NCBI GenBank assembly: GCA_951406725.2
Contig: OX597817.1
Coordinates: 133,424,001-133,488,000, forward strand
Origin: Octopus vulgaris
Lineage: Eukaryota
Direction: 5' to 3'
Length of the DNA: 64,000 nucleotides
Shown: one piece after another, positions 899 to 41,672 of the stretch
Layout of the letters: the number at the start of each line of letters is the position of its first letter
Position numbering within the stretch: the first letter of the stretch is position 1
Translations under genes and position numbers: made by a program
Notes under the pieces: model-generated
What the model saw: only the letters and a program-made list of their open reading frames with translations
Databases searched by the model: none
What the model was told of the DNA's origin: nothing

Positions 899-925
899 CA
901 GGAAACAATGGTTTCCTGAGTTCAC
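899..925 (-). CDS. Candidate Shal micro-exon (9 aa)
   Basis: ccattttccctccag|VNSGNHCFL|gtaatt. 27 nt, phase 0-0; the donor is only moderate. Confidence 0.22.
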
Positions 926-1631
926 CTGGAGGGAAAATGGCAAGGAATTGCTGAGGGCAACAAATGTAAAAGATTTTCAAGTTTTGGGGAAAAGAAATGT
1001 TTGAGAATGGTAATTGCCGTTGTCTGCAAGATAGAAGTACTAAAAGATGAAGGTAAAAAGCACCCAATTCCTTGAGGTAGCTGTTCCAAAACTTAGCCTT
1101 GCTTCTTATTCCTCATCACCACCATTAGACAAAAAGTGAAGCTCAAAGCATTTTCCATTTATTTTCTTTTATCTTTCAAGCTCTAAATACTTTTTAGTTC
1201 ATTGGGACCTAAAAACGAAGAAATGTCAATATATTTACTGGGAAATATTGCAAAATTGAATAAGTAAATTTAGGTTGGCGGCAAATATCGGGGCCTGTAC
1301 TTAATCCTGCAGCTTGCGAAAATAGCAGTCAAATCTTCCTCAATTCATACCCCAGTGTCTTAAGAAGAACCGAAAGGAGACATCAGATAATGCAGCTCTT
1401 TATAGGAATGTGTGTGTGTGTTCTTTTTCAGGGATTAGAAAAATTGAAGGACTGCTGCAATAATTGTATGTACGTAAAATCATAATCAACTGATCCTCTT
1501 GTATTTTCTGTCCCCCCAAACCAGGAACTTTTCAGCATCCTCTCACATATATGGACACACACACACAAAAATTGATGTCTATCTATCGATTTCTCCATTT
1601 TCTTTTTGTATACATAAATGATAATAGCGGC

Positions 1632-1825
1632 GGTAAAGAATAGGACACCAGCCGTTTTCGGCGCAACAAAAACCCTAATCCTAACCCCAAACCCTAACCC
1701 TAATCCGAACCCTAATCCTCACCCGAATCCTAACCCTAAACCTAACACTAATCCTAACCCTAATCCTAATCCTAGCCCTAAACCCTAACCGCAACCCTAA
1801 ATACCAGGTGTACGTATTCTTTACC
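1632..1825. mobile_element. MITE-like element with internal degenerate (TAACCC)n repeats
   Basis: Terminal inverted repeats ggtaaagaatag.acacc / ggtgtacgtattctttacc flank a telomere-like array. A second copy is at 5890-5997. Confidence 0.75.
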
Positions 1826-2358
1826 CATTTGCGTCGATGAGAAGCTAACATCTTTTTAGTATTTCACTGGGAAAAAAAACGGGGTAACCCTCGCAATATA
1901 TTTGGGCAGACATCAGCGATAGGTGGCCCAAGCAAGTGGGAGTTTCTCCGTTTTGACGGGGATTTTTCAGATTTAGTTTTTTTTTTCGCTGTGTCCTTGG
2001 GGATGATCTGGAGCAGCATTTTAGGAAAATGGAAATTTTCGAAAAATCCCCCCCCCCTGCCTACCACCTCTCAAAAATTATAGGAGAAGCCTTTTCGGTA
2101 AAAAATAAAGAGAGTTTTGGCTGTTATTTCTAGCATATCACTATTTTCTTCTCATTAATAGAATAAACTTATATTATTTTAAAAAAATATTCTTGAAAAT
2201 TTATGGTTTTTACCAATCCTAAACCTACATGTGTCTTATGATAAGAGTATATGAGACAAGGAAGTGATAAACCATTTCTGATTTCCATGTGTTTATATTA
2301 TTAAATGTCTTGAAAATAAAAACATGTCTTTCCTTGCGTTATTATTACCTCCGCCTTA

Positions 2359-2758
2359 AGGCGGTGAGCTGGCAGAACCGTTAGCATGTCGGGCGAAATG
2401 CTTAGCGGTATTTCGTCTGCCGCTACGTTCTGAGTTCAAATTCGCTGAGGTTGACTTTGCCTTTCATTCTTTCAGGGTCGATTAAATTAAGTACTAGTTA
2501 CGCACTGGGGTCGATATAATCGACTTAATCCGTTTGTCTGTCCTTGTTTGTCCCCTCTGTGTTTAGCCCCTTGTGGGTAGTAAAGAAATAGGTATTTCGT
2601 CTGCCGCTACGTTCTGAGTTCAAATTCTGCCGAAGTCGACTTTGCCTTTCATCCGTTCGGGGTCGATAAATTAAGTACCAGTTGCGTACTAGGTTCGATC
2701 TAGTCGACTGGCCCTTCCCTTCCCAAAACTTCAGGCTTTGTGCCTAAAGTAGAAAAGA
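2359..2758 (+). mobile_element. tRNA-derived SINE with Nin/Deu-like domain (partially duplicated)
   Basis: Head gagctggcagaa...gagttcaaatt (A/B-box-like), followed by gactttgcctttcatcc.ttcggggtcgataaattaagtaccag. Related copies near 6300-6480 (-), 12335-12710, 14583-14760, 42045-42250 (-) and 49341-49555. Confidence 0.75.
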
Positions 2759-2769
2759 TTATGACGTCC

Positions 2770-3138
2770 TACTAAACGAAGGTGGAGGTATTGTTTTCAG
2801 TCGTGTTTGTTTGTCCGTGGATGAGATATCTCAAGGACCGCTGGATGGATTCGGATGAAACTTTCAGGGATGCTTGGCCTCGTGACTGCCAAGAACTGAT
2901 TAGATTTTGGGATCGATCCGATTCTGGACAACAATTCTGGATTATTTTTTCGATTTTTTTCTAATTTGTTTTTTAAACTTAATTTTTGATAGCGACCAGG
3001 TTCATTTTTAGTATTCTCGTTTATGAGAGCAGTCGAGTTTATTTCAGATATTCTCATTTCAAAAACCATCTCCAGCTAATCGTTGAGAGGACGTTGGTGT
3101 TGCCATGGCGGAGGCTTGCACTCTCTGGGTGCTCTTGT
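2770..3138 (+). mobile_element. Helentron/HINE-like non-autonomous element
   Basis: Ends ggcggaggcttgcactctctgggtgctcttgtt. Its 5' tacctccgcc arm is at about 2346, separated by the SINE. Closely similar to 12716-13096. Confidence 0.55.
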
Positions 3139-3974
3139 TATTATTATTTGCTGGCTTTCATTCGCCCTATATGATATCATTTGGACGAATAATTGTAGCT
3201 TTCTTTTCTTCTTGACTATTACTATATATAGTAATTATTAATTACCGAGATAATTTAATTAACGGTAACCCTCCCACTTAAACCTGTTTGGTTGAAATAT
3301 TTGCTTTCTTGGTTTCATTATAGAAATTCGAGCAGACGACATTGTTGTTTAGCCCAAGGTCAAGCTTAATAGGATCAAAGACATTTCAACAATGACTAGC
3401 AGCTCTTTTTCTTTCTTTTTTTATTTTTTATTAGGCATAGTATACTTTGGCTACATTATTTAAAATGCAATTTTTTTAAAGATTGTAAAGCATGTTTTGA
3501 ATGGATGTTTGGCTGCTACTTCTTGCAAATTGAGCGCTCACAAAGAAGAGCACGTCTGCTGTTGGCTGACAGTTATTAGCAGCCACAGCTCTTAATATTG
3601 ACCAATTTTGACAACTATTCTGTTTTTAATAAAAAGAAAAAGAACATTTCAAAAATATTTAGAAAAACTGTAATTCTTTCTGTTCATATATTTCTATTTT
3701 TAATGTGGAATTCAATATTGTTTGTAAATTTGTAGTTTGAAATAACATTGATGAAAAATATGGAAAAACAAATTAATTGCAAAAAAAAATAAACCTGAAA
3801 TTTTCATCTCTTAAATTTTAGTAATTCCAGTATTTTTATTACATGATTCAATCATATATTTTGCTATGTTACTATAAACCCACAAGTATTTATGTAAGAG
3901 TGGCAAATATGACAAGAATGTGTCGAACGTCTGAGAAATAGATTTTCAGGTTTTACACAGCCCTGTCTACTCAC

Positions 3975-4013
3975 TCCCGAAGGTAGAACAGAAGAATAAG
4001 TAATTCGACTAAG
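3975..4013 (-). CDS. Candidate Shal micro-exon (13 aa)
   Basis: ttttgtaattttctattctag|LSRITYSSVLPSG|gtgagt. 39 nt, phase 0-0, strong pyrimidine tract and donor. Confidence 0.42.
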
Positions 4014-4189
4014 CTAGAATAGAAAATTACAAAATACATAAGATATATATATATACATCAATATTAGCGGTTGGGAGGCAGTTGCCGGCAACCGTGGAGA
4101 ATGGCGACGTACAGTAAAAGAGGGAATACAAAAGAGTGACAGAGAGAGAGAGGAGAAATGGAAAGAAAGGAAGAGACGTAAACAAGAGA

Positions 4190-4380
4190 CTATGGCACTA
4201 CAACCAGCCAGGAACAGTCTTCGCTACATTTGCGGTACCTGCCAGAGGGAGTGTTTGTCCAGGATAGGACTACACAGCCACAGCAGGAAATGTATCAGGA
4301 CATGAAATATAAAAGCCGGACTAGACTACAAAAAAAACATGCGCAACTCCATTGTCTCCCGAGACAGAAAGGATGCCAAT
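4190..4380 (+). mobile_element. RTE-type LINE 3' end relic
   Basis: Translates YICGTCQRECLSRIGLHSHSRKC, matching the CxxC..SRIGLxSHxR motif at the C-terminus of RTE ORFs. Followed by a short UTR and a (TA)n tail. Confidence 0.65.
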
Positions 4381-5889
4381 ATATATATGTTAAGGGCATT
4401 TCTACATATTATAAGGGACTCTTAAAGTGAAAACTACCTTGATAAATATACAGTTTACCAACAGCGAGGGATTTACGTGTAGTAATGCCCTTAATATAAT
4501 AAATGTATTTAAAAGGGAATAAATTAATTACATATTTTGTATAAATTTTCCCCTTAACAGGCGCGAGCGACCTTGACATTACATACATGCATCTGTACGT
4601 GCATGCATGCACACAAACAGACACACAAACACACACACACAAAGACACGTACATACATTTGAGACTCAACTTTGCCTTTCATCCTTTTGAACTCGGTGAA
4701 TGAAATGCCAATTCAGAAAAGTGAATTGGCGGAACTGTAAAAAACGTTGGACCGGGTGCCTTGAGCTAATTGCTCCGGCTCCCTCTGATCCGAGTTCAAA
4801 TCCGGGTAGGGTTTACTTGAGGGCTAGACTTAATCTGTCACTCGGTTTAACACCACCATCTAGCAATTTGGATCCTTTAAGCGAAGTTCACTCTATTGCA
4901 GGTAATCGAGCCTGGCACCCAAATTTGAAGATACCTTCTTCCATTCTACCTGTCAGAGTCAAAGGAGCTGTAAAGTGACATGAGCACGGCCTGTTCACCT
5001 AAGAGAAAACCTGTTATTTCAGCTACCACTGGATTTAACATTCCTTTACACCCAGGAAAGTTATTGTCAGTGATAAGAATAAATCACGCTGCTAATGTAT
5101 TTGATATTTACTTAGTTCTTTTAACGTAAGTGCCTAAATAACGTAATTCCATAATTTCTAACTCCAGATAGAAAAAAAGGGTTGTATTTGAATTGTTTAA
5201 ACGCGTTATGTGGTGAAATGATTAATTCCGAATTTGGTTTATTATATTTTAAGTCTTCAGAACTCAAAACAGTTTTAAATTTGTGTAAAGATAAAGTACT
5301 AATCCGATCAACTGCCAGAAATAAACAAATGACTGCTTCATAAATATTCTTGATACTTTTAAATTGCAGAGAGTTGTCTCCCTTACATTCAAAGTGTTGG
5401 TTCTATATTTGACTCTGTGTTACTGTGAATGATTAATCAGGTTACAATAATTAAAATCTAGTAGATCAGGTCTTTTCCACCGCTGTTTCGTGTTTGCTGC
5501 ATGGACTGGGGCGAGTCAGAAAATACCACGATATTTAGAAAGCTTCAGTGTTAATGCACCACTCCCACACCGGTGCATATGTGCATTTCTTATCAACGTA
5601 ATACAGTGCACACTTCTCGGTAGACAGCTGACTAGGGAACTTCCTCGTTCATGTTAAATATGGTTTTATTCACACGTTAATGTCTCTATCTGCTCTCTGT
5701 TACTGTTCTATTGACTTTGTTTTGTTTTAAGTGTGGTGCAAGTTCTTTGGTAGCGTGTGTTATAGGGGCATATCGGATGGGTGTGTGTGTAATCATTAAA
5801 AAAAATTGAAAAAGGCCATTGGTGTGTATTAATACAAATACATTTAGCGTGACATTCATTGTGTTGGGAATCGAAAAGAACTGGACGGA

Positions 5890-5997
5890 GGTAAAAAATA
5901 CGTACCACCCATTTTCGGCGTAACAAAAACCCTAACCCTAACCCTATACCATGACCCCTAACCGTAACCCTAAACACCGGGTGTACATATTCTTTAC
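5890..5997. mobile_element. Second, shorter copy of the (TAACCC)n-containing MITE
   Basis: Same TIRs and the same ttttcggcg.aacaaaaacccta junction as 1632-1825. Confidence 0.75.
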
Positions 5998-8192
5998 TTT
6001 CGTCAAGAATCGATAATCGCTTGACTAAGCGGGGAATTAAACTATCAAATGCCTATTTAGAAAAAAATTTGTTATATAAACTTTTTCAAATTGTTCGATA
6101 CTTCGGTAATAAATAAAATGAATTTGCAAAATTTTAATTTGTGAGACAAGTGATTTATTGTAATAAATAAATAAATAAAGCGTGTAATTTATTCGAGAGA
6201 TTTAGTTGGCATTGTACACAGATCTTTCTGATGGGTTACTGGGTAGATTTGAATCTATTAGACTAAATGTTTTAATATTAGTTACAAATTTTGGCACAAA
6301 GCTAGCTATTTCGAGGGAGAGATAAGTCGATCATATCTATCCCAGTTATCAACTGGTACTTAATTTCTCGACCCGGAAACGATGAAAGACAAAGCCGATC
6401 TGGGTAGAATTTGAGCTGAGAACGTGAAGACGAACGAAATGCCGCTATGCTCGGCGCCGTAACGATTCTGCCAGCTCGCCACGTCAACATATATTCTAAT
6501 ATTAATGTATAATCATATATTCTAATTGAAGTCCACAAAACATTATTCTGATTCTACCAGTGGTAACATAATATGGAAGAATGAGCATCGCTTTCCTCAT
6601 GACTGAGCGTCGTGCGGGGGAGGGGGCTCAAGCACAACAACTACCCGACACCAAACAATTCACTCTCGTATTCTGAATGAACAGATCTCGAATTAGCCAG
6701 CCCTTATTACAGCTATGTTATTAATGATAGAGTGCTTTTTCGTTGGTATATCTAGCAGGTAGTTCCACAACAGAAAAGCCACTCCCGGATATGTCAAATT
6801 GTGGCCATTAAATTGCACGTCATTTTTGTTTAAAAATGAGGTTTGTTTCTCACTTAAAAATCACTTAAATTTCCAATTGAGATTTGTTTATCCAGTGAAA
6901 TTTAAATTTAAATTTTTTTATATTACAGAGCGAATGTAACTCAAATTACAGTGCAACATATTTATTTTATTTATTCATTTATGCATTTTTTGTAATTATG
7001 GTTGATAAAGGCAATGAACTACATATTTCAAGTTTCAAACTGTAGAATGTCTAAATTTTTGTAAAAATCGTTTAAAATAGGCTTCAATATAAAGGGACGT
7101 CAATATTAAAGACTTTTTCTAAGAGTAGTGTCCCTTGTTTGTTGAACGTAGTAATCGTCAATTTAACTAAACCTAAGGTAAAAGCGAAATTTATTTTGTG
7201 ATGCTCATGTTTTCACCGAACTGAGTTATGGTGCAGGGGGAATGGACTGGTTTCTATTGAAATTGAAACAGATTTCAAATTTCATCTTCGATGCTATTAG
7301 TAGAAGAGGCATGCTCAAAGTGCCATGCACGTGGTTGTGAGGAAAGCTTATTTCAGCTATAATCAATAAGACTCTATACGTCTAACATGCGTACAACACT
7401 ACAGGATATAGTAAATTGGATATACTGCTGGTACCTTTGATATTGATCTCAATTTTGAAGCAGATGTGAGAAAATGTTGTAAGGTAATCCAGCATACAAT
7501 AGCATATTGGCATCTATTGTATAACTGGTTTTATTTTATTCCTCTCATGGGATGACAGGTACAGCTGACGACAAACTTGCTCTTGAAAGTAGATGCTTAT
7601 GGGACCTGCATTATACAGTAGTTAATTTTCCTGAATAAAACAACTTTCGATTGTGGTCGTTGCCAGTGCAAGTAGCAGGTGAAAAACACCGTTTGAGCAT
7701 GGTCATTGCCAGAACCGCCTGACTGGCCCTCATGCTGGTAGCACGTAAAAGCACCCACTACGCTCTCGGAGTGGTTGGCGTTAGGAAGGGCATCTAGCTG
7801 TAGAAACTTTGCCTGATCAGATTGAGTCTGGTGCAGCCTTCTGGCTCACCAGTCCTCAGTCAAACCGTCCAACCCATGCCAGCATGGAAAGCGGATGATA
7901 ATGAATTAATTTTTAAAATATGCTAGAATTGTTTGCAAATTAACATGAACCTTGTACAAGATGTTAAGTAAAAGTAACGATCGTTGAAAATATCCTTATT
8001 TAATGAATACATGAGTAGCAGCTTATTGATAGATGTTGTTGATATTCATAAGGAATATAGCATGAGAAATATTGTAAATATCTTTGTTGGGATTTGGAAT
8101 ATGTTGAAATATAGCATAGATGTCTATGTTAGTATAGTGAGAAATATACAGTGCATATTTAGGCCACCAAGTCGGGAAATAGGGTCAGTTAA

Positions 8193-8398
8193 CCATTTTG
8201 ATACCAACTACCTGAGACCAGTTCTCTGAGAAAACTTCCATGTTTTAAAGTGGTCAAAATTAAAATCTTCCATCAAAATTTTATGATTTAAGCCTAATAA
8301 TGACAAAGTTTTGTTTTTTTTTACTAAAATCTTCATTATTTTCAAAACTAATTGAAGTGAGGGTAGTATATTTCTTTAAAAATATGGTTACAAAAGGG
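8193..8398. mobile_element. piggyBac-type MITE
   Basis: TTAA|ccattttgatacc ... ggttacaaaaggg|TTAA. A related copy in the opposite orientation is at about 58021-58237. Confidence 0.7.
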
Positions 8399-8984
8399 TT
8401 AAATCAACTTCAAGGCATTAAAGGATTTATTTTATAATCTCCTCAATGAATGATAGGTGAACTGAACTCTACTAAGCTGTGAAATGAAAACTTAATAGAT
8501 CTAAATATCACCCATCATGAAATCTGGTATCCTATTCTGTATGCCAGTTCATCAGGCTTCTGTTATAATATATTAAAGTATTGTAGATATATGATGTGTG
8601 TGTGTGTGTGTGTGTATTGAGTTTTGTTTATATTGAGCAATATATTCGTTTAAAAGCACAATATGAGAGAAAGTGGGTGGAAGGAAAGATTTTGCAAAGA
8701 GACATAATGAATATATATATACTTGTCTGAAACAGAATAACATTAGCGGAAACAACAACAATTTAGAGTTTTCAAAAATACTCAAACAGGAAGTGGATAA
8801 GGGAAATGCTGGAGTCATGTAATTTCTAGAAGCGAAGTGCTACAAGAACTTGGAATTAGTAATACTCTAAATATAGGATTGGTAAGCCAGGAACATTGAA
8901 GGAAAATTGACTGTTTCAACAGCATAAATTTGAATGAAGTGTCAGTGCCAAGGCTCTTACTGCAATCGTGTATGCTTTTCTCAC

Positions 8985-9104
8985 CGGTTTGTGTTCAGCA
9001 GGCTCTTCACTTGTATAGTTGTAATAGTTCCATGTTAAGACACGTTCTATTGACTGCATTTCTTGTTCCATACTTGATGGTAAGCGTGTAGTAGAATTCA
9101 ACCC
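8985..9104 (-). CDS. Candidate Shal alternative cassette exon B (40 aa), paralog of exon A
   Basis: attctttag|GLNSTTRLPSSMEQEMQSIERVLTWNYYNYTSEEPAEHKP|gtgaga. 120 nt, open in phase 0-0. Confidence 0.72.
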
Positions 9105-12100
9105 CTAAAGAATATAGCACACTAAGTAGACACATTGAAATCTTAAACTTATATTTAAAAAATATAGGATTAAGTGGGTGAAACTAATAGCAGATTGATA
9201 TCTTATAACCCTAGAGGGTACCTCAGTAATGTATAAAGGGGATAAATGTTTAGTAATCATTTATTTTTGGTAGTTCAAATTCAGCCATGTAATGATGGAA
9301 ATAATTCTCTCACTGTATATATTGAAATTTCATTGAAATGCAAAGGATTATGTGTTTAAATTGAAAACAACCCTAATTTCAGTTTGATGCAGTTGTTTCA
9401 AATATACTAGTTCTGAGTAAAAATGTTTGTGATGTAAAATGAATATGTTAAATATTTATATAACTAATTATGGAAAATGGAGAAGACTACAGTGGGGTGA
9501 GGGGTAATGAAAACAGAAAGTTGTAGTAAATATGAGAATAAAAACAATAGAATTAAAATTGAGATTGAATTTTTGGTTAGTTCAGAATATAAAAAAATCA
9601 TGGACATTATGATTTAAAAATGGTGTTTGGCAACAGTTTTTAAATATATAGGTTGAAAGAGTACTTCCATTTTAATGTACATAATGGTTATTTCCCTTGT
9701 GAGATAATGATAAGCAATGATGTCTCCTTTGATACCATTTCATTATTTTCTTTTAAACTCTCAGAGTGTGTGAATATAAATGTATGAATTTATTACTGTG
9801 TATACAGAGATACAAATGCATACACATGCATTTAAATGTAATTTTAGTTTTTGCTCTTCTGGCATGTGTATATGGGTCAGAATAGTTTATGTATGGCTCA
9901 TCTCCAGCTCTAATCTATTGGCATGAAACTTTCCAGCCCATTGTGGGTTTTACTTTCAAGTAAAGGATTTTTATGTTTGTGGTAAATACTATTGCTTACT
10001 TTAAGTATTTAATTTCTTTTTTTTTTCCCCCTACTCTGCCTCTTACAGTTATATAGCCAAATACCCTGACTAATGCCAACAATACACCAATTATAGATTG
10101 GAGAGTATAACTTCCGATTACTCAGTAATACACATTTTTGTGTTTTTATGTGTGTGCTTGTGTGTGTATGTATATATATCTATATGTATGTGTGTATGTT
10201 TATTCACAAAGCTAAGTCGTGTTTACCAGTATTGGCTATATGAAATCTTTACAGATGCATGAGCATAAGAATACGCATGCATATATCCCAATTAGTGACT
10301 TGTTTTCGATTGTTAAACATTTTTCTGTATATAATGTCTATAATTCCATTTCCTTTGATTTTAATGTAAAATAAATATTTCTCCTCAGGAAAAATTTCAT
10401 CTCATAGGGCAAAGAGAAATGAGATGATATTTACAGAACTGAAGTATCTAAAAGTTAATTTATTTTTGCTATTTTGCATTGTTGTTATTTTAGCAAGTAT
10501 AATATTAAAAAGAAATACATATTGTTTTTCTCATTTTATCCATTACTCGCATAATTTTGTTTGGTGTTCACAATCCGAATTTCTTAACTTGGAGTCTTTC
10601 AACATTTTGTAAGTTATTTATTCGTCTATTTACTTTCATTTGTACAAATTTTTCTGTTGGTATCTTCTGATAGTTTTTTTATACAGGTAATTCTGCCATA
10701 TTTCATAGTTATGTTGATAACCATAATCACCTATGATATGCATTTAACCAATTAAATAATGCATTCATTCAAAAATTATATGGTTCAAAATGTAATATAT
10801 GACCCCATTTTTAAAACCCCATTTGAAAGAAATTTCAAGGTTTTGTGGTTAGTTGACAAGTAAGAATGTGAGGTTCAATCATGAGATTAGTGAAAATGTG
10901 CTCAGGTAATACTGAAAATTATTTAACGTATGACTGAGTTAAAGTGAAAGAAGGAAGGTTTAACAAAGCTTTGCTCAAATTAAATTCAGTTTAACGATGT
11001 TGAGAAATGTATGTGCATTAAAGCAGAATATGAACAGTTGAAACTACACTACAGTGCAAATTCATATCAAACCAGCATGGAAATACACTAAACTAATGGT
11101 GACAGTATTGAAAAATTTTGCCTGTGTACAATGCCAAATTTTTTGAGGGAAATCTATTTGGGCATCAGTGAGAATAACACTGAAAGTATAGTGACAAATC
11201 AAATAATGTTAGGCATTTGGTCACGTGATCTTTAATTTCTGCTAACACACTATTATTGATATCAGTGACATTGATAATGTCAATCTTCAGTCTCTTTATA
11301 TAAATCCAAACATAAATTAAAATTAAAATGTTTTCAGCACTATTATTTGATATCCTAAAATGTCACCTCAGAAACAAACTACACGTTGGTAAACTGAAAT
11401 ATTCCTAAAGAAAAGAATACTGAATTTTTAATGTAAAAATTTCATTTTAGAAAATATTTTCTATTGTTCATTTGATATGTAATGTAGAGGAGCACTTTAT
11501 GGCTTTACTTTTTGCCTAGAATGTACTGTAAAAGACAGATGAACAAACTCTAATAGATGACATTCACCAGGTTGAGGATAAAGAAAATTGTTGGGGCACT
11601 GCAGTTTGACCTGTGTTGGACAACAGATTACTGTTGATATCTACATCCTCTGCAGGAGCCCATGGGTGGATGTGAAATTTGCTCTGCAAGCCAATAAAAT
11701 GCATCTCGGTTATAACACTGAGCTCAGTCTCACATAATATTGATTTACAGCTAAGAGAAACAAGCCAGAAATAGTTGAATGTTTCTTATCAAGAATATGG
11801 TTTAGTACTAGTGACAGGATAGGAGCCATCGATCTTTCAGATCCTAATGACTCAGCAGCCAGTTGTAACTCTAAGACTACTTGACATCTTTAGTGAAGAA
11901 TTTAAAGCAGAATATAATCCTTGACTTGAAATAAAATATAAATCTAATAATTATAATGATTTACTGACAACCTGTCAGTGTTGATTTTGGATTTTATATT
12001 TCTATGTTTAAATTCTAGTAAGTTTAACTCGGCTTTTAATCCATCCAGAGTTGATGAAATAAATACTTGTGATTTACTGGACGCAAGTGAACTAGCACTT

Positions 12101-12715
12101 GTTTTATTGTATTATAGAATAGTGAATGGATTCTGCATTGGTTTTTGACAGTTATTCCAATTGTTTGATCAACAGAATTACATATTCAATGAATTACAGT
12201 GTCTGCAGACTAATATTTCACAGGCTTATATACCCTTAATGTATTCTTAAGGCAGAATCATCATGCAGTGTGACAAAGATGTCTCATGTATGTAAATCAC
12301 TACCTTATTATTATTATTATTATTATTATTATGGTCGTGAGCTGGCAGAATTGTTAGCATGCCCAGCAAAATGCTTTGAGTCATTATGTTCTGAATTCAA
12401 ATTCAGCTGAGATTGACATTATAGATCAGCTTCCTCCTCGAAATTTCAAGCCTTGTACCTTGAGTGAGAAAGATTATTATTGCTGTTGTTATCGTTTTTA
12501 AGGTGGTAAACTAGCAAAATTATTAACATATCGGATAAAATGTTTAGCAGCATTTCTTCCACCTATTTACTTTCTGAGTTCATATCCCACTGAGGTCAAA
12601 TTTGCCTTTCATCCTTTTACAATTGATAAAATACTAGTCAAGTACTGGGGTTGATGTAAATAACTTATACCATCCACCTAAAATTGCTGGCCTTGTGCCA
12701 AAATTTGAAACCATT

Positions 12716-13096
12716 ATTACCTTCGCCTTAGCGAAGGCGGATGTATTGTTTTCAGTCATGTTTGTTTGTTTGTCCATGAATATGATATCTCAAGAACCGC
12801 TGGATGGATTTGGATGAAACTTTCGAGGATGTTTGGCCTCGTGACTGGCACAAACTGATTAGATTTTGGGATTGATCTGGTACCAGACAAGGATTCTGGA
12901 TTATTTTTATTTTTCTGGTTTTTTTTTTTTTTACTTAAATTTTGACAGCAATCAGGTTCACTTTTAGTATTTATGTTTGTGAGAGCAGTCAAGTTTATTT
13001 CAGATATTCTCATTTTAAAAATCATCTCTGGCTAATTGTTGAGAGGATGTTGGTGTTGCCCCTGGCGGAGGTTTGCGCTCTCTGAATGCTCTTGTT
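12716..13096 (+). mobile_element. Helentron/HINE-like non-autonomous element
   Basis: 5' hairpin ccttcgccttagcgaagg, 3' subterminal ggcggaggt plus short stem-loop, inserted in a TT/ATT context. Second copy at 2770-3138. Confidence 0.55.
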
Positions 13097-13534
13097 ATTA
13101 TTATTATTGGAAGAGTCATTATAGTTTTGGACAAATGTTTTCACTCTATTACTAATAGCATGTTAAACATGTGCTGGTGCATGGTCTTATGGTTAAGTTA
13201 TTGGGCTTTCAATCATAATGTTTTGGGTGGCATGTTTTGACCATGAGCAAGGCACTTCATTTCACATTCTTCCAATCTATTCAACTGAACATGAGCACCA
13301 GACAAGTGCTGGTGTAGATTTCTCTCCCCTTCTAGCTGTCACATCCAGAATGTGCCACTGGATGAAAGGGTATGAGAAGAGGGTGTCTGTGTTTGCTTGT
13401 GACTACATAGGTATCTGAAATAATCAACAAAGCGAACCTGTCATGGGGTCCTGTTTTCGATCATGTTTGGATGGTGATAATGATTGTACATGTAGCCAAG
13501 CATACTTATTTGTTGGTGATGGCCGGCTCTTTAA

Positions 13535-13945
13535 TATATTTCACTTGTTTCAGTCATTAGACTGCGGCCATGCTGGGGCACTATCTTGATGAATTTTAGT
13601 CAAATGAATCAACCCCTATATTTTTTTTATCCTTTTAAAATCTGGTACTTCTTCAATTGATTTTTTTTGCCTTACAGCTAAGTTTTGGAAATGTAAACAC
13701 ACCAGCACCAATTGTTAAGTGATGGCAGAGGGCAAACACAAACAGAAAGACACATACACACACACACGTGTATATATATATGTAGATGACAGGCTTCTTT
13801 CAGTTTCCGTCTAACAAATCCACTCATCAGTCTTTGGTTGGCCCAAGGTTATAGTAGAAGACACTTGCCCAATGTGCCATGCAGTAGGATTGAAGCCAGA
13901 ACCATGTGGTTGTGAAGCAAACTTCTTACCACACTGCCCCACTCC
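13535..13945 (-). mobile_element. tRNA-derived SINE, same family as 29331-29785
   Basis: Reverse-complement similarity along its length to 29331-29785. Confidence 0.7.
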
Positions 13946-15694
13946 TGTTAGTAGTATTTATCATACTTCATGGTGTTTAATGTCCACTTTTGATTTGAAG
14001 AAATGATTTCTTGCAAAATACAAATGTCAAAGATATTAGAAATAATGGTCTAAAATTTTATAGCAACTCTTAAAAGGATTGATGTCACCACAAAGTAAGA
14101 AAATTATCTTGTATCCATGTATAGTGCATAGGGCAGTTTATAAAACCAATTATTAATATCAAAAAGTCTGCATTATATGTCATCAAATACAGTAATTATA
14201 TTTCAGGGTTGTCTCACTTTCATTTGTAAAATAAAATTCTCATCATTAAATGTGTAATTCTAATTGAAATTTCTTGGCTTACTGCATCAAGTAAGTTAGT
14301 AACCTTCTTATAATTTGTCTTTCATGCAGCCAGCATCCCAAGATATTTCCCCCCAATCATTCTTTTAAGATACAATGCCAATCTGTGATGATTAACAATA
14401 AAAAAAAAATAATAATTTCAAATTCTCTTGTAATCTAAGATCTGCAGTAATTAGGCAATGTCTTGCTGGGGAATTCTCATAAGACTGAAACACAACTAGA
14501 GTTATCATTGTCTGTTGAAGACCAGACTCACTCTCCACTGCATTCCATATCTAATTAATGTTAATATTAATTTCAGGGTTAAGGTGGCGAGCTGGCTGAA
14601 TAGTTAGCACTCTGGACCAAGTGCTTTGTGGCATCTCATCTGTTTTACATTCTGAGTTCAAATTTCATAGGGTCAACTTGCTTTTTTCATCCTTCTGGAG
14701 GTCAATAAAATAGGTACCAGTTATACATTGGGTTTGATGTAATCAACTTAGTCTCTTCTTCAAACCAGCTGACATCATCAACATCATCATCGTTTAACGT
14801 CTGTTTTCCATGCTGGCAGTTTGACTGGGGACTGGCAAGCCAGACGGCTGCACCAGGCCCCACTCTGATCTGGCAATGTTTGTACAGCTTCGTAATGCCA
14901 ACTACTCTGAGAGTGTATTGGGTGCTTTTTATGTGCCACTGGCATGTGAACCAGTCTGGCAGCACTGGCATTGGCCATGTTCAGATGGTGCTTTTTACAT
15001 GCTACTGGCAAGGGGAGCCAGTCAGGTGGCACTGGCAACGACCCACACATGAATGGTACTTATTGCATGCCACCAGCATGGGAGCCAGTCAAGCAGCACT
15101 GGCATCTGCCACAATTACAATTTCCATCTGATTGTGATTTCATTTGATTTGATTCAAATCAAAATCAAATGGACCTTGTGCCAAAATTTGAAACCGATAT
15201 TAATTTCACAGTTGTCTTCTCTTTTTGACTAAATTAAGTAATTTATTTAGGTAATAATTGCTCTCTTGATTAAGGTATAATTTTAATTAAAATATCTTGG
15301 TTTACTACATGAAACATTCTAGTGCTCTCTTTACTTCTGAGTCTCCATCCAGCAGGCATGCCTTGGTAGTTTTTAAAAGTCTTTCTAGTTACTCTAAAAA
15401 CTTTCAACCATTCATTCTCTCTATCTATCACTTACACCACTATTACTAATCATAATTTAGTTATGTCAGTGAAAATATTCTATTGATAAATTTATTGATC
15501 CTAAGTTTTTTCATTAGTTTATTCATAAAAAATTAAGGTGTGTACTTATACATCTTTATGACATATGATTTTTAAATGGTTAAAATTTACAAATAACAAA
15601 ATTTGAAAAGAACTTTAGTAAATAGTCAATTATTATAAACTGACACAATGGCAATGAAGATGTTAGTGATAATCATCACACACATGCACACGTA

Positions 15695-15748
<54 letters not shown>

Positions 15749-15751
<3 letters not shown>

Positions 15752-16519
15752 GGTGTTCTGAGTGTTTATGAGTAAACTTTAGTAGGCTGTAAATGAAAGA
15801 CGACTTAGCATAATTTTTGTTTTGTGTTATGTAGCAAATTTTTATTTTTTCATTTAATTTTTTGCATTGATACACCTGGGTGTATCAATAGCATCAGTAT
15901 GCCAAATTCCAGTCTTATATAGTTGAAAAAGTTATATTGTGTTTGTGACTTTAGTTGGGGATTGCCACCTTCTTGAACATAGCTGGATTCTTTGAGTTAA
16001 TGGTCAGGAAAAAGCTTGAGGCCTCATGCCATCTGTGACCAAGAGAAAGAAACCTATTCAGTGGTCAGATGTCAAGATGGTTGAGTTTATCCAGCATGTG
16101 CAGAACATCATCAACAACTATACCAGCATATCAATGCAAACTATTGCAAAGCAGATATGTGGTGTGTGAGGATGTCTTACATGACGACAAGTGGGCAGTT
16201 CATGTCCAGCAAAACTCTGGAGATCTGTGTGATAAGTTATCTCTTAGCACTCATGATTTGACTACTGGACTGTTATATCTGTGGTATTATTGAGTAAGGG
16301 AACCAGCCAGGAGTGGCATGGGGAGAGGTGAGCTATCCTGGCATAGTCATTTCAATCACTGCATCAAAGCTGTCATAAGGACTGAGGTTGGTTTTGTTGA
16401 TTGGTCACTTTCTTTGTGTATCTAGTTGAAAATGTATGCTGTTTTTCTAGGAGAATGTTGGTTTGTTTTTGTTTCTCCTTTTGTTTTGTTTAGTTTCCAG
16501 TTACCTAGCACACCCTGTA
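15749..16519. mobile_element. Degenerate Tc1/mariner-like element
   Basis: Ends ctgggtgttc... and ...gcacaccctgTA, with decayed coding-like interior. Confidence 0.4.
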
Positions 16520-16814
16520 TATATAAAGAGAGAGAGCATGTGTGTGTGTGAGTGAGTACATACAAATGCTAGTATTTCGTCTGTAATTATCTTGAGGTAA
16601 AATTGCTTTCTCTGTATTCGTACTTGAAAAGCATTATATGCCAGTTGGGATGGATTGTTTAAGTATTAAATATTCATTGCATTATTGATATAGTGCTGTA
16701 GTCATGTTTAAATAGAGGGTTTTTTTTTCTCCTTTCTATCATATATTTTCTATTTTCATTTCATTTATTTGTTTATTGGTTTTCAACTGTAGCTATTTGC
16801 ATAAGATAACTCAC

Positions 16815-16880
16815 CTGGAATATAGCCATTTGGAAATGATTAGAAATGGTAAAATCATCTGAACCCCTGGTGGAGAAACC
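16815..16880 (-). CDS. Candidate Shal cassette exon (22 aa)
   Basis: tcaattcag|GFSTRGSDDFTISNHFQMAIFQ|gtgagt. 66 nt, phase 0-0, consensus CAG|GTGAGT donor. Confidence 0.5.
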
Positions 16881-17878
16881 CTGAATTGATAGACAAGTAC
16901 ATCAAGGAACACAGTGAAGAGAGATAAGGGCTTACAACTGCTTGTCAACTCTAAATTTTCAAACTGAATTAAATCCAAATATAATCTAAAGCTTTTAGAA
17001 ACAGAAAGTAAATAATCTCATAATCTTTGAGGATTAAAAAAAAACAATTAATTTTAATTATTTGGCTGATTGCATTTTTTGCTTTTTATTCTATTATTTT
17101 ATTTTCATTCTATAGATTTGAAATGAAATATAGTTACATTCTTTTAAACGGAAGTTTCTTAAATACGTAATTTAACCTTTCTCATTGATTAAACATTGAT
17201 GTAGTCCCATTTGTAAGTGTGTACTCAAGTGCTTGTATGTGTTTGTGTGTGGGAGAGAGAGAGAGAGAGGAAAGAGATATAGAGAGAGGCAGGGGATTTT
17301 TGTTTGTGCAATTACATTAAATTCTTGAAGATTAAACTTGGTTTGAATGGAGAATATCTGTATATGATCAGTGTGCATTCAAATACAAAGGATATGAGAG
17401 ATAATTAAGAGTACTGAGTACTCTCTTTTAATTCTCTTTCATATATTCTTTGTATTTGTGTTCTAACTGATTTTATAAAGTAGTCTTTGGTTACACTAGC
17501 TGCTCCACTTCAGTAATAGACACACACACACACGTGTGTGTTAATATTTGCACATACGTGTTTCTGTATTCATATGTATTCAAGGGAACTGGTATAGCAA
17601 TGCCTTATTAAATACGAAGGTTGGGGGTTAATGTAATTGTGGTGAAATAGTATCATTGACCGGCAAAGACTATAATGAGAGGCAGCATATATTGTTTGGT
17701 GTGGAGTGCAAGTATCGAAGAAGCGAGGAGGCTGATGTGTGTAGTGAACAGAATGTGGAGAGACAAATTTAAAGAGCAGAGCTTGTTACATTAAAAAAAT
17801 CAGAAGTAATACAGTTTGAAAGGAAGGCAGGGATAGAATATTCTCAGTAATAGATAATCTTCTGAATTCAGTTCTAGA

Positions 17879-18315
17879 TACATTATTTACTTTTGATGGA
17901 TATTTGTCCTCATCTTGTTTGTTGTTAACACATTTTGACTGATATACCCCACAGCCTTCATCAGGTGTCTTGGGGAAATTTTGAACCTGGGTTCTCATTC
18001 CTAAGGTATTTTTCAATTTTATTATTATTATTCAGGTCACTGCTTGGAATCGAACTTGGAATCTTGGGGTTAGTAGCCCGGGCATATGGCTTAGTGGCTA
18101 AGAGCGCAGGCTACTAACCCCAAGATTCCGAGTTCGATTCCAAGCAGTGACCTGAATAATAATAATAATAACATCGAAAAAATACCTTAGGAATGAGAAT
18201 CCAGGTTCAAAATTTCTCCAAGACACCTGATGAAGGCCGGAGGGTATATCAGCCGAAATGTTGTGTTAACAACAAACAAGATGAGGACAAATATCCATCA
18301 AATGTAAATAATGTA
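17879..18315. repeat. About 200-bp-arm inverted repeat of a tRNA-headed element carrying a hammerhead-like motif
   Basis: 17879-18080 is the reverse complement of about 18109-18315. The right copy has A box tggcttagtgg, B box gagttcgattcc and CTGATGA..GAAA. Confidence 0.85.
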
Positions 18316-18706
18316 CATAATTCCTCATCTCTTAAATATAAAACTCTATTATCAGTCCTAGATGTCTGAAGTTAAAAGAGATGATCATTCACATCTATGA
18401 TAAGAGCATTTCATATTGAAGTATATTTGAGCTATGTTGTGAGCTGACACAGTTACTTGAAGCAAGAACATTTTCTCATATTCTGATGAGAAAGCTATGA
18501 CTCCTGAATGTAATTTTTTCTGAAAATTAGTATTTCAAAAGATGGCGATGGTCGTTCTAGCACAGTTGGGATAGAGTTGTTGTATGTCAAACAGAATATA
18601 TGTTAACTTATGTGACATAAACAGAGATTTTACACTTGCATCATGGTTTTGATTAGTCAGCCCATTCATTGGTTAATGGTTGTATGTCTGTAGGCTGATA
18701 AGGAAT

Positions 18707-18730
18707 TGTGTGTGTGTGTGTGTGTAAATG

Positions 18731-18819
<89 letters not shown>

Positions 18820-19000
18820 CTCTACTAACTTCCAACATAATGTTGTATTGAGTTCTTTTATGTTTTTGTACCACAAAATAAAATATATGTGTATGCATAT
18901 ATATTATATTTACATATACACACATATTTATATGTACATATATGTATGTACATACATGCACATGTATATACATATACACACAGACACACACACCTGCACA
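18707..19000. repeat. (TG)n/(TA)n/(CA)n microsatellite cluster, representative of many in the window
   Basis: Visible directly; source of the YIYI/HTHT ORFs. Others at 15680-15750, 23364-23402, 29492-29580 and 51562-51720. Confidence 0.95.
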
Positions 19001-20574
19001 CCCACATAAAGTGCATGTGTTTGTGTTGTACAAGATGTGGGGACTGATGCATATCTTATTAAAAAAGACAGTTTTGCACTATTTTTAGACATTTTATATT
19101 TAGTTTCCTATATTCTGTTGTGAGTTCTTAAACTTATTGCTTTGTGTTTTCTATTAGTATATTTCTAAGTTTATATTGATGTTTTGAGGCATTGTGAATT
19201 TATTATCAATGTATATACATATAAGAACATGGCATATGTACTTATCTGTCACAACCATCCACCAGTATATTTATAAATGGTCAGGAGCTCATTGTACATT
19301 GAATTATGTATATATTTTTTTAAACATATTTGTTGTTTTTATAGATTGAATAAGAGATAACTAGAGCATGCAGCATGAACTTTACAATAAATATTTCTTT
19401 CATTGATCTCTTATTCAAATACATGCATATACGCTACACATGCACACACATACACAACATACACACACATGCACACACACATGCACACAATCATACACAC
19501 ACTCTTGTGTATATAAATGAAGTTTATGTTTTACATTTATTTGTTTGTTAAGCTTTTATATATTCTTTTGTAGACGTTTATCTTCCATATCAGAGTGTCA
19601 GGCTCCAAGATTTATCTCTTCACATCAATACTCTTCTTCTCCGTGTGGTTAATGTCCTAGACATTAGGGTCATATTTCAATACGGCTTTGTAACGAAGTG
19701 TATGCATTGTCTCAGCGAGCATGATGCAAATAATAGCTTAACATAAAGTATGGCCTATAGCTGATGTCCACTTCATATGTAGCACACCTGTCCAGTTGAT
19801 GGCCAATGACAAATAAAGATGTGCCTAAGCAACACCTTCATTTTGAGGGTTTCCATAGTTAGAATTTATTCACTCATGGCCAGGCCAAGAACTGATTGCA
19901 GCTAGTCATCTCTTGTACTTGCGGAAATTATTAAAAATAACATTAGTCATTCAGCTATTGTCCTTTTTCCTCCTCACTGCATAATTAGAATGTATGTTAG
20001 CAACAGAGGATGGTCAAAGTGCAAGCTTGGCTTCATAGTTCAGAAGTTCACTTCCCAATTATGTGGTTTCAGATTCTATCACACTGGGAAACACATTGTG
20101 CAAGTGTTTGCTTCTAAAGAACCCAGCTGCCTTAGGCTTTGTGAAAGGATATGGAAAGTGGAAACTTAAAGAAGCCTATCGTACATCTGTGTGTGAGGAT
20201 ATGTTTGTGCTTCCTGGTCCTGACATTACACGATACTTGTAAACAAGTGTCACCATCATACAAAGACATCAAAACAGTCCTTCATTAGCAATCTTCTTTG
20301 AAGCATATCCAATCTTGAGGAAGTATTATGTTGCTTGAAAACTGATAAAGGTTCGCAACAAAAAGGATATCTGACTGTAGAAAATCTACAACAAATTCCA
20401 TGTGACCCATGCATTGGAAAATGGATCTTTTGGATCTTCAATATATATCTGTCTATTTGTCTGTCTGTTCGTCTATCTGTCTGTCCATCCATATGTATGC
20501 ATATATATATCTATAGGTATATATTATGAAGTTGGAGCGTTAAGCAGTGACATGCATAAATGCAATGTTATTAC

Positions 20575-21156
20575 CAGTTCAAATATGCTTGTGGCATGTT
20601 TGGACTGATAAACAAGCCATTCATTAAGATTTGTTATGGAGAAAATGTCTTGCTGTTGACAATGGTGTAAATACATGTAGATCAGTTTGCAGCATCCCCT
20701 TTCCAGACTGTGAGATGCAGTATTTCAGAGTAGTTATCTCCTCTTCAGTCGCAGACACTGGGCAGATGGTGTGGCACACTAATGAGAGTGATTCTCTTAT
20801 ACTATTTCATTCATTGTACATTGACTGATAACACTACACAGCAGCTCACCATAAGTAAATTACAAAGTAGCAGCAATAAGCAGTAATATGTAGTGCTGTC
20901 AGTCATCGTACAATGACTGAAATAGTATCAGAGAATAACTCTCTTTCATCAGTTCGCATCACCCTTTGTGCAGTGTCTGTGACTGAAGAGGAGATAACTA
21001 CTCCAAAATGTTGCATCTAACAGTCTGGAAAGTGGCTACTGCAAACTGATCTACGTGTATTTACACCATTGTCAACAGCGAGAAAGTTTCTCCATGACAA
21101 AACACAGTGACTGGCTTGTTTATCAGTCCAGACATTCCACAAGCATATTTCAACTG
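20575..21156. repeat. About 265-bp-arm inverted repeat (fold-back), each arm carrying a hammerhead motif
   Basis: cagttcaaatatgcttgtggcatgtttggactgataaacaagcca pairs with tggcttgtttatcagtccagacattccacaagcatatttcaactg. Pairing continues inward to a loop of about 50 nt. Confidence 0.9.
20708..20754 (-). ncRNA. Minimal type I hammerhead ribozyme motif (Penelope/retrozyme type)
   Basis: CUGCGA-CUGAAGA-GGAG(auaacua)CUCU-GAAA-U(acugc)A-UC-UCACAG: core boxes, helix II, 1-bp helix III and helix I with one mismatch. Confidence 0.65.
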
Positions 21157-21157
21157 A

Positions 21158-21201
<44 letters not shown>

Positions 21202-21928
21202 TGTAAGTGTAAGTATGGTTGAATAGCTAAACAAGTTTACTTCAGAACCACATGCATGGCACCTTGAGCAAGCATCTTCTACCATAGCTTCAGGCTAACC
21301 AATACTTTGTAAGTTAAATTTGATAAATAGAAAATGAATGAAAGTGTATTGTATTTATGTGTGTGTTTGTGTCAGAGAGAGAGAGAGAGAGAGAGTTTCT
21401 AGGTGTCTATACATTGTCATTGACATTTTTATGTCTCATAGCTCAATAGTTTTCATTGTTGTTGAAGACCAGTACAAGAAAAAATATCTGCCTTGAAAAA
21501 CAAAGGAAAGATAGTATCAAACCTCAGTATCTCTCTTCCAAACCGTGCCAGTATGGAAAAAGGAGACATAGAAATGATGAGGATAACATAGTTCATGTGT
21601 GTGTATGCGTGAATGTAAATCTATGATGTATGTATGCATGCATATTTATGTGTGTATATACATACACACATACACACACAAGTAATATATATATATGTGT
21701 GTATATACATATATACAAATATATATATAATTCGTATGCATAGCAAAGGGCTGTATGTATGATTTCATGTTTCTTTTCCATGTGGCTTTTTTCCAATGAT
21801 CATTTATGCTCTCAGACAAAGCAAGTTTCTATAGGTTGATGTAATTAAAACTTCATTGTGCAGTAGTTTGTGTCTCTATGTTGGATAACTAAAACTGGAG
21901 ATTATCTAGGGTGCCACTTTACTCTCAC

Positions 21929-22045
21929 CGTTTTTTCTTCCTCAACCGAGCTTTCTGCAGGATAAGAGTACACCTGCCAGTCCAATACAGCTTCTGGACC
22001 TAATATTTGTTTTCCAAACTCTTCTGGCAGCACCATATTTAAACC
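21929..22045 (-). CDS. Candidate Shal alternative cassette exon A (39 aa)
   Basis: tgctgtag|GLNMVLPEEFGKQILGPEAVLDWQVYSYPAESSVEEEKT|gtgaga. 117 nt, open in phase 0-0, with sequence similarity to the exon at 8985-9104. Confidence 0.72.
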
Positions 22046-23182
22046 CTACAGCATGATACAACAATAATATATGCACATTTAAAAGACAAAATGAAAATGA
22101 TTTTGCATTAAACATTAAAGACACATCAAAGGATATATGATTATAAAATTTGTGTATCCCCCATGGGTTCATATATCTATTCAGTACAGGTATAAGTTTA
22201 TACATGTAGACTCTGTCACCTAGTCCATATTTATATTTTGTGGCATAGTAACCATATGGCTAAGCAATTAAAGGTAAAATCTACATTTGCTCACTCTGAT
22301 TTTTAGACTCAATAAAAGAGAATTAAAATTTGAAAAAAAACTGAAGGAAGTATTCTGCATGATGAATAGAAGTGGTAGCAAGAAAATTTACACTTATATT
22401 TAGCTTTTCTCTGAAATTGTGAATTAAAATCACAACTTCAAGATATTCTCACCTGTTTGTAAACACTGTCATAAATTAGTGTTTCTATCATATTCTTGGG
22501 AGATGTCTTTTAACTGAACTGAACTATAGGCTCGTGGGTAAGAGTTTAAAATCTACCACAGGTATCAATGTAATTTGTAGATATGAAGCCTATGATTTCT
22601 AAAGTGATGGAAAATGACCATGCATCTGATTATGAAAGCATAGTTACAGAATTGCATTACTAAGGATCATTTTCTTCTTTAAAGTACATGCCTATAATTT
22701 TACTGGAAGTGTCCATCTACTCTTGAATAGACCATGTGATATTTTTTGATCTTCTGTTTTCTCTTCCCTTAATGTTTACAGAAGGAAATGTACTTTATCA
22801 TGGTACTTATATATAGTTAATTAGATTTGACTTCTGAAATTTAAGCGTCTTTACTGGGAATCATAATGCACCAGCCACCACTCAGCCAGTAGGTTAACAC
22901 CATTACATCTTAAACATCTGTTGCTTTTTTTCATTTTATATTTGTTTATTTGGAATTATGATTACATTTAACCACGTTTAAGCATTAACATCTTCAGACA
23001 TTTTATCTAATTAAATATATAGTGGTGAAAGAGAAAACAAATAAGTGAGATACTGATGTATGAAATAACATAGTACAAATAGTTCAACATGTTCTTGAAT
23101 TCTTACCAGAACAATAAATGTGTACCAGCTGTCACTTTTGAAAATAACAAAATATAGAATTTGCACTAGACAAGATTCTCAC

Positions 23183-23230
23183 CCAAATTGTGAATCCTTC
23201 TATTTGAAGTGTTGACATACTACCTGTGTG
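23183..23230 (-). CDS. Candidate Shal micro-exon (16 aa)
   Basis: Branch-point-like tactaat, then attccttaatag|HTGSMSTLQIEGFTIW|gtgaga. 48 nt, phase 0-0. Confidence 0.3.
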
Positions 23231-23361
23231 CTATTAAGGAATATTCATTAGTAAAACATTGAAAAAAAAAAAAATTCAAATGATTCTGTAAGACAATTGG
23301 TATGCTTTGGAAATGATATGATATCATAGGAGACCATTAAAAAATGTACTTGTTAAAATAT

Positions 23362-23404
<43 letters not shown>

Positions 23405-23709
23405 TTGTTGCATGGTAGAGGCAGAATTGATTATCTTTTATGAATTAAAATATTTCCTTATTTTTGCTTCTACAGCTTTGCTTCTGTACTGCAAATATTC
23501 ATTTAAGTTTTGCAGTAATTCAGGGCTATTTTACCCCTTTTACATAGTCTCTATCAAGCTTCACTAGTTACCTTCTATTATGAAACTGCTCATCATAAAT
23601 TTTCAAACTGTATAATCAATCATGTCCTACAATGTATGTGTGTGTGTGTTTGTGTGTGAATAAATATGAAATTAAATGGCACAATATTTAAATACATGAT
23701 GGTACTTAC

Positions 23710-23892
23710 AGTAGTTTTTTCTAGACAGGTTAAGAGATGATGATGCTGTAACTCGAATATGTCTTCTTTGTAGTCATCTACTTCAAGACCACTTTCTCTA
23801 GCAAGTACGACCTCCTCAGTTCGTTTCTTGCTAGTGATAAAGGCTGCGCCGCTCGCGTTTTTAGCCATGCGGATACGAGCCAATCGTGCTTT
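23710..23892 (-). CDS. Shal: Shal/Kv4 exon: proximal C-terminus with di-leucine targeting motif
   Basis: aatttcag|KARLARIRMAKNASGAAFITSKKRTEEVVLARESGLEVDDYKEDIFELQHHHLLTCLEKTT|gtaagt. 183 nt, phase 0-0, in frame with the 41510 exon. Confidence 0.97.
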
Positions 23893-26800: not shown

Positions 26801-27126
26801 CACTCTGCCTACTTAAAGATTACACACACTCACCAACACCCTCTACCCACAATAACCATTGTCACTATACTGTCACACTTGCACACCTTGATACACATGC
26901 AACACTACAGTGATGTATGCCCGCCCACACATACACACCCTAAAACCTACTTATACCTACTTCCAGCCACAGATACTCATTCTTGCAACTATGCTTCTGC
27001 TTTTAACTCCTCCTTTTTTAAATCACCCCCTCTCCTGAGAACAGTATTTTCATTCCCATTTTGCCTGATTTTACTTCTTTTTTTTTTCACTGACTCTCTC
27101 TCCTCACTCCCTCTGTTTCTTTCTTT

Positions 27127-27160
27127 CTTCTGATGAAGGGCTTATGTCTGAAAGGTTAAG
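27127..27160 (+). ncRNA. Minimal hammerhead-like motif (Penelope pLTR type)
   Basis: CUU-CUGAUGA-A-GGGC(uuau)GUCU-GAAA-GGUU-AAG. Confidence 0.45.
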
Positions 27161-27267
27161 TCACTTCATCTTGCTGTTATACATCTTCTACCTTATTTGT
27201 CAATTTTCGTTTCTCCTGTGTTGTCCCTTTTTTCATTATTCATTGCTTTATAGTGTGTGTACCATCA

Positions 27268-27305
<38 letters not shown>

Positions 27306-27565
27306 ATACCTCATCAACATCATTATTTTAATTAACATTTTTCTATGCTTGCATGGTTTAGATAGAATTAATTGAGGCCAATTTTTTATGGTTGGATGCC
27401 CTTCCTGTTACCAATCCTTACTTATTTCCATATAAGTTAATATTTCTTCATAACCAAACAGGCTTTCATGGAAGATCAGAAATGAATGATGGTGTGGGTG
27501 TCTCCCTTCTATGTCATCATCATCATCATTTAACTTTTATTTTACATATATATATATATATCTTC

Positions 27566-29330: not shown

Positions 29331-29489
29331 GGCGCAGGAGTGGCTGTATGGTAAGTAGCTTTTTTACCAACCACATGGTTCTGGATTCAGTCCCACCGCG
29401 TGGCACCATGAGCAAATATCTTCTACTATAGCCTTGAGCCAACCAAAACCTTGTGAGTGGATTTGGTAGATGGAAACTGAAAGAAGCCT

Positions 29490-29564
<75 letters not shown>

Positions 29565-33800: not shown

Positions 33801-33839
<39 letters not shown>

Positions 33840-41509: not shown

Positions 41510-41672
41510 CTTTTGTGCCTTGCGTTTGTCTGCTCTTTGGTTCTGATGATAAATACGACTAAAGTTTGAAACAATTACAGGCACTGGTAATGCAATAACC
41601 AATACACCACTCAGGGAACACACACCACCAACTATTTTACCAGTTATTGTGTTTGGTACCATATCACCATAT
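41510..41672 (-). CDS. Shal: Shal/Kv4 potassium channel internal exon: end of selectivity filter, S6, start of C-terminus
   Basis: Translates (G)[54 protein letters not shown], a Kv4-specific sequence. Boundaries are ttttgtag|A TAT GGT (phase 2, splitting the first Gly of GYG) and AAG|gtaaat. Length is 163 nt. Confidence 0.98.

Follow-up and report, generated by a model that had tools for sequence, protein, structure and literature searches.

Three probable optional exons, two of them duplicates, after the CLEKTT exon of an octopus Kv4 channel gene

The DNA stretch analysed here, 64,000 nucleotides (nt) from Octopus vulgaris and hereafter called the window, carries on its minus strand part of a gene for a Kv4/Shal channel. 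Octopus Shal/KCND is 100% identical to its CLEKTT exon, the best match in the PDB is Kv4.2 (E=1e-45, against E=6e-15 for Kv2), and Pfam finds PF11879 and PF00520 in P0001, an NCBI gene model of 397 residues from Octopus sinensis. Two constitutive exons lie in the window, both on the minus strand. The upstream one is the S6 exon (41510..41672), with 54/54 identity to residues 36-89 of P0001, and the other is the CLEKTT exon (23710..23892), which ends HHHLLTCLEKTT in phase 0 and is 100% identical to Kv4 of O. sinensis and O. bimaculoides. The CLEKTT exon encodes the dendritic targeting motif and the first half of the segment that binds KChIP. An exon of the DREF type was found in the window neither by motif search nor by tblastn, which agrees with what an earlier reading of the letters (the sequence-only reading) had reported for the 23 kilobases (kb) after CLEKTT, and it thus sits past the window edge. 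Upstream of the S6 exon, no Kv4 exon was found in 22 kb (64000-41673, minus strand). The whole window is shorter than the span of the Kv4 gene.

In the intron after CLEKTT, the sequence-only reading proposed an array of cassette exons, consisting of two exons, A and B, and four further frame-preserving segments of 48, 66, 39 and 27 nt. As it gave no coordinates for these four, they were located by their lengths. All six segments are present with these lengths. Each is bounded by AG and GT and is open in frame 0; GTGAG donors are used by five of them, as described, the exception being the 27-nt segment with GTAAT. That all are phase 0-0 is a consequence of how that reading selected them and of the phase of the exons on either side. 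All lie on the minus strand. Exon A (21929..22045, 117 nt, 39 residues) has the borders TAG/G ... ACG/GTGAGA, the slash marking the splice site, while the 66-nt segment, here named exon C (16815..16880, 22 residues), has CAG/G ... CAG/GTGAGT and exon B (8985..9104, 120 nt, 40 residues) has TAG/G ... CCG/GTGAGA. A and B are classed as cassette exons and C as a probable one.

Residues 151-251 of P0001 are exactly A+C+B, forming a 101-residue insert between CLEKTT and DREF, in which C (22/22 identical) stands between A and B. Since C occurs in P0001 together with A and B, a cluster of several cassette exons probably exists. The sequence-only reading had named, as the outcome that would speak against its array, that only direct splicing or inclusion of A or B is seen; the inclusion of C in P0001 departs from that outcome. 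We lean towards the reading that octopus Kv4 carries three optional in-frame cassette exons after CLEKTT, in the order A, C, B, of which A and B are duplicates. Three supported exons give at most 8 combinations, not 64. Inclusion in messenger RNA (mRNA) is very likely for A and B, and rather likely for C.

A and B are paralogues. Their alignment contains 14 identical columns out of 41, with a score reached by 0/5,000 shuffles, and at the DNA level the likeness runs into both splice sites. In shuffle tests C is like neither A nor B, neither of these is like the DREF exon, and none of the three is like an insert of Owenia discussed below. No third A/B copy was found in the window with a hidden Markov model.

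A HMMER search of 50%-cluster representatives gave six matches, of which P0124-P0126 were kept and P0127-P0129 dropped as unrelated repeats. P0124 is identical to A at 36/36 positions (0/36 differences) and differs at 2/8 of the read-through codons (p=0.03). Similarly, P0125 has 0/25 differences from B within the exon, and 7/22 where it reads through into the intron (Fisher p=0.003). P0126 is identical to A at 24/36 positions (12/36 differ), without indels, and differs at 6/8 beyond the donor; it ends EKP, where B has HKP, followed by VS at the donor codon, which fits a GTRAGY donor, and after this the likeness is lost. Conservation that halts at the donor and a frame that is kept at 33% divergence point to selection on the coding sequence, and we therefore take A and B to be conserved as coding exons, with the flanking intron diverging.

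The chance expectation was obtained from five null regions of together 103.6 kb, i.e., the opposite strand and both strands of the intron 41509-23893 and of the upstream 22 kb. Under the main filter (GTGAG donor, YAG acceptor and at least 9 pyrimidines of 17), the focal intron contains 8 donors with a candidate and the null 13, where 2.98 would be expected in the focal intron (P=0.011); over 100 shuffles the mean was 1.65 and the highest count 5. When A, B and C are removed, 5 candidates are left against about 3 expected (P=0.18). The excess is also gone with looser donor sets: GTGAG/GTAAG/GTAAT donors number 14 in the focal intron and 12 on the opposite strand, and seven donor types number 22 and 23. 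The excess over chance holds for A, B and C only. The opposite strand and intron 23893-41509 are the comparison regions that the sequence-only reading had suggested.

It is very improbable that all six segments are freely combinable cassette exons, which would give up to 64 C-termini and a splice hotspot. All six are indeed in frame with AG and GT, and one of the four extra segments, C, is present in a gene model. The other three are probably chance AG..GT stretches, as the leftover count is at the null level, and of the four extra cassette exons claimed, only the 66-nt segment has outside support. None of the three matches the full consensus YAG/G ... G/GTRAG, and none is found in the 120 listed matches of a search with the CLEKTT exon (298 matches among 326 candidates), where not a single 6-mer of their peptides occurs; the database was not queried with these three themselves. 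The 48-nt candidate (23183..23230, minus strand) has C at acceptor +1, and an alternative CAG/G 7 nt downstream would turn it into a 41-nt exon that is out of frame. The 39-nt candidate (3975..4013, minus strand) has a pyrimidine-rich acceptor, with C at acceptor +1 and A at donor -1. The 27-nt candidate (899..925, minus strand, 899 being the start given in the sequence-only reading) has a weak GTAATT donor at the 8.9th percentile of U1 pairing. By the same measure the 48-nt donor is in the top 0.5% and the 39-nt donor in the top 1.0%, which favours the six-exon array; they score like A and B (0.8%), and these two segments are thus unsupported rather than excluded. The splice states on record are also only all-in and all-out.

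Further observations concern the same intron. Phase-0 candidates of like quality that the sequence-only reading did not mention exist at 22354-22295 (60 nt), 3619-3542 (78 nt) and 16216-16181 (36 nt). Exon B has a weak second in-frame donor at 8961 (minus strand), GCA/GTAAGA, at the 12.9th percentile, which would add 8 codons; over these P0125 has one difference and keeps the following VR, while the next 14 codons contain 6 differences. Inside exon A, an in-frame acceptor at 21973 (minus strand), CAG/GTG, with a poor pyrimidine tract, would give a 45-nt short form. A strong orphan donor, CAG/GTGAGA, is located at 22452 (minus strand), and its in-frame upstream acceptors are all AAG. An origin of the segments as exonised transposons was rejected, as none of the six shares a single base with the repeats found by self-BLAST of the window, i.e., repeats present twice in the 64 kb. 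In Pfam, A, B and C gave nothing above the cut-off, and a BRCA-2_helical match below it was dismissed.

Among the 120 listed matches, CLEKTT is followed by a DREF-type exon in 42, by a skip of DREF in 16, by an insert before DREF in 4, by V in 50 and by something else in 8. The V start is the read-through of the GT donor. The distal DREF exon, called constitutive in the sequence-only reading, is not strictly so in molluscs, given the 16/120 that skip it. Ten of the 120 are cephalopod-level matches with 97-100% identity, and in nine of them (P0002-P0010) CLEKTT is joined directly to DREF. These include P0002 (O. bimaculoides X2) and P0003 (Sepia pharaonis, listed as Acanthosepion). P0004-P0010 are 589 residues long, lie on contigs of 2.3-2.5 kb and have the same residues after DREF as P0003. 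We infer that these contigs come from spliced mRNA, as they are short compared with the introns. On record are thus two states, all three exons in (one gene model) or all three out (9/10 cephalopod-level matches), and skipping of all three is the main recorded form.

The only inclusion model, P0001, lacks about 370 N-terminal channel residues, and its first 33 residues are intronic. They are coded at 43606-43508 of the window (minus strand), with 31/33 identical, and P0001 has the look of a split gene whose first exon was invented. The window DNA is a close relative of the O. sinensis assembly, not identical to it.

With skipping so common, A, C and B could be rarely spliced or vestigial pseudo-exons without effect on the channel, so that only the skipped protein matters. 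The direct join in 9/10 cephalopod-level proteins and the lack of a second inclusion protein among the searched candidates are in line with this. Splicing in O. vulgaris is reported to peak in neural tissue and not to be unusually diverse among invertebrates (PMC9699675). However, the conservation ends at the donor in P0124, P0125 and P0126 alike, and the frame is kept at 33% divergence, and we consider a vestigial state rather improbable.

It is also conceivable, although unlikely, that A and B, a duplicated pair used singly (mutually exclusive or rarely together), are the only real exons, while C and the A+C+B chain are prediction artefacts. Mutually exclusive exons usually arise by tandem duplication, A and B are paralogous, they alone show independent conservation, and the first exon of P0001 is demonstrably spurious. 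For exon C the support consists of P0001 and its donor, which pairs with U1 at 7/7 consensus positions and ranks first of the 1,197 GT sites in the intron; independent evidence of conservation is absent, the one match in another species being the 22/22 of O. sinensis, with no other carrier among proteins of 218-695 residues (shorter fragments were not searched). This donor speaks against C being an artefact, and P0001, even if a prediction, joins all three exons with both A and B included. Further, introns as long as 5.0 and 7.7 kb leave no steric exclusion, and A+B together stay in frame. No exon-linked pairing of the selector/docking kind was found among the 25 longest of 435 inverted repeats, which is a weak test.

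Several points weigh against the reading of A, C and B as three optional exons. The full consensus is matched in the 23.7 kb by exactly A, C and B and only once in the 103.6 kb null, but this filter was chosen when the P0001 exons were already known, and the result is thus descriptive and no blind test. On U1 pairing by itself, A and B cannot be told from the 48- and 39-nt candidates. P0124-P0126 are fragments, compared at the protein level only. For C, the divergence between the octopuses is so low, as the 31/33 of the spurious first exon shows, that its 22/22 identity is uninformative. All seven evidently spliced, full-length Sepia-type contigs (P0004-P0010) skip A, C and B, and the description of the locus as a splice hotspot is thus overstated. 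Just one protein, P0001, was seen to have any of A, C and B attached to Kv4: when its residues 151-251 were compared with proteins of 218-695 residues, 1/13 candidates carried the insert, P0001 itself, and the A/B profile likewise found only P0001 in proteins of 71-2000 residues (1/17 candidates). No O. bimaculoides isoform with A, C or B was found, X1 not having been looked up. As P0001 is truncated and starts within an intron, it is partly ab initio, and its inner exons may be without read support. A literature listing retrieved no cephalopod KChIP; invertebrate KChIPs are mentioned in PMC3973911. No report on cephalopod Kv4 splicing was found either, in a literature search mostly limited to papers outside subscription.

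The position of the junction can be placed by alignment to PDB structures, in which the last residue of CLEKTT falls on T489 of Kv4.2 and on T487 of Kv4.3, i.e., the junction is between T489 and N490 of Kv4.2. As the Kv4.3L exon consists of residues 488-506 (PMC5585193), the octopus and the Kv4.3L junctions are identical. In Kv4, the C-terminal segment S472-D495 binds KChIP1, and the mutations H491A/F493A/V494A abolish the speeding of recovery by KChIP1 (PMC8566240). By this alignment the octopus junction splits the KChIP-binding segment.

We suggest the following scenario for the three optional exons. A and B would have arisen by tandem exon duplication, with C unrelated to them. The common isoform would skip A, C and B, and the included forms would gain 22-101 residues. 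Inclusion would keep the helix and the dendritic targeting motif, but would displace D-R-E-F-T, the counterpart of N490-V494, and put the opening residues of the first included exon in its place. At residues 490-495, DREFTE would be exchanged for GLNMVL with A, GFSTRG with C and GLNSTT with B. At 491/493/494, A would then offer L/M/V, hydrophobic like the L/Y/L of the Kv4.3L insert, while B would have L/S/T and C F/T/R. The most likely effect would be that the bare channel is little changed, and that the KChIP-dependent current size, inactivation and recovery are altered. That splicing at this junction serves to tune the channel to KChIP is, by analogy, a possibility that we hold with somewhat less than even confidence.

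The closest parallel in these comparisons is between the octopus exons and Kv4.3L/Kv4.3S (KCND3), as in both an optional in-frame insert stands directly after CLEKTT and before N/D-x-E-F, within the KChIP-binding segment. The inserts of Kv4.3L (GLSYLV), A (GLNMVL) and B (GLNSTT) all open with GL. However, the first G is expected from the AG/G acceptor consensus, and common descent with the Kv4.3L insert is thus not shown. By eye, the likeness stops after the first residues, and octopus shows no evident equivalent of the PKC site T504. Kv4.3L has a single exon of 19 residues, while the octopus gene has three, of 39, 22 and 40 residues, two of them duplicates. Kv4.3L and Kv4.3S homomers inactivate alike, while with KChIP2b they differ in current augmentation, inactivation rate and steady-state inactivation, and recovery is equally sped (PMC5296356). 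The insert of Kv4.3L also reduces palmitoylation, according to a preprint (bioRxiv 10.64898/2026.07.03.735752).

It can be speculated, although we think it unlikely, that octopods have expanded a Kv4.3L-type site by exon duplication into a module of three exons and up to 8 isoforms with differing use across neural tissues, whose first included exon would recast the second half of the KChIP clamp. As an equally doubtful part of this, the B- and C-first forms would resemble H491A/F493A/V494A and lose the KChIP-accelerated recovery, while A-first forms would keep the hydrophobic contacts as in Kv4.3L. If true, a single Kv4 gene would switch the recovery of the A-current cell by cell, in convergence with vertebrates.

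Splice diversity at this junction is not limited to octopus. In the protostome Shal models of Haliotis (X3), Mytilus (X2-X8), Owenia and Trichonephila the same junction is used alternatively, but there it is mostly DREF skipping (16/120 listed), with inserts in 4/120. The skipping is seen in P0015-P0018, P0025-P0032, P0034, P0036, P0037 and P0060, from abalone, mussel and other molluscs, and it deletes the second half of the KChIP-binding segment, while Mytilus X2/X6 have a different 14-residue segment at the DREF position. Inserts at the CLEKTT junction are found in the models P0057 and P0064, in Owenia (23 residues, unrelated to A, B and C) and in Trichonephila (7 residues). The lobster shal gene, likewise an invertebrate Kv4 with splice diversity, reportedly has C-terminal alternative exons, and alternate splicing is said to have been proposed as a source of A-current diversity there. 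Dscam-type arrays consist of tandem mutually exclusive exons. A and B resemble them in being duplicated, of similar length and within one intron, but there are only two copies in the window, with an unrelated exon between them, and both copies are in P0001.

Kv4 governs the A-type current and the firing rate, and in vertebrates its diversity comes from three genes and a single optional exon. If cephalopods have a conserved set of duplicated exons at the Kv4.3L junction, this would mean that the KChIP-binding segment has been used repeatedly for tuning. The surprise is moderate, as an NCBI model already contains the exons and Kv4.3 is known to be spliced at this junction; optional sequence here is also common in protostome gene models. 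New here are the A/B paralogy and conservation, the possible link to KChIP clamping and the removal of three probably spurious candidates.

Other features of the window lie outside the exons. Degenerate TTAGGG-like tracts within a dispersed repeat are present at 1628-1824 and 5886-5997. Five open frames, at 4042-4302 (plus), 28082-28390 (minus), 33118-33387 (plus), 43586-43888 (plus) and 54696-54923 (plus), resemble remnants of long interspersed nuclear elements (LINE) and of piggyBac, although they have no Pfam match at E<=0.1. Between A and C, long fold-back inverted repeats are located at 20575-21156 and 17879-18315, with arms of 217 nt (85%) and 107 nt (84%). In the pre-mRNA these might fold into double-stranded RNA, as a substrate for editing or with an effect on A-C splicing.

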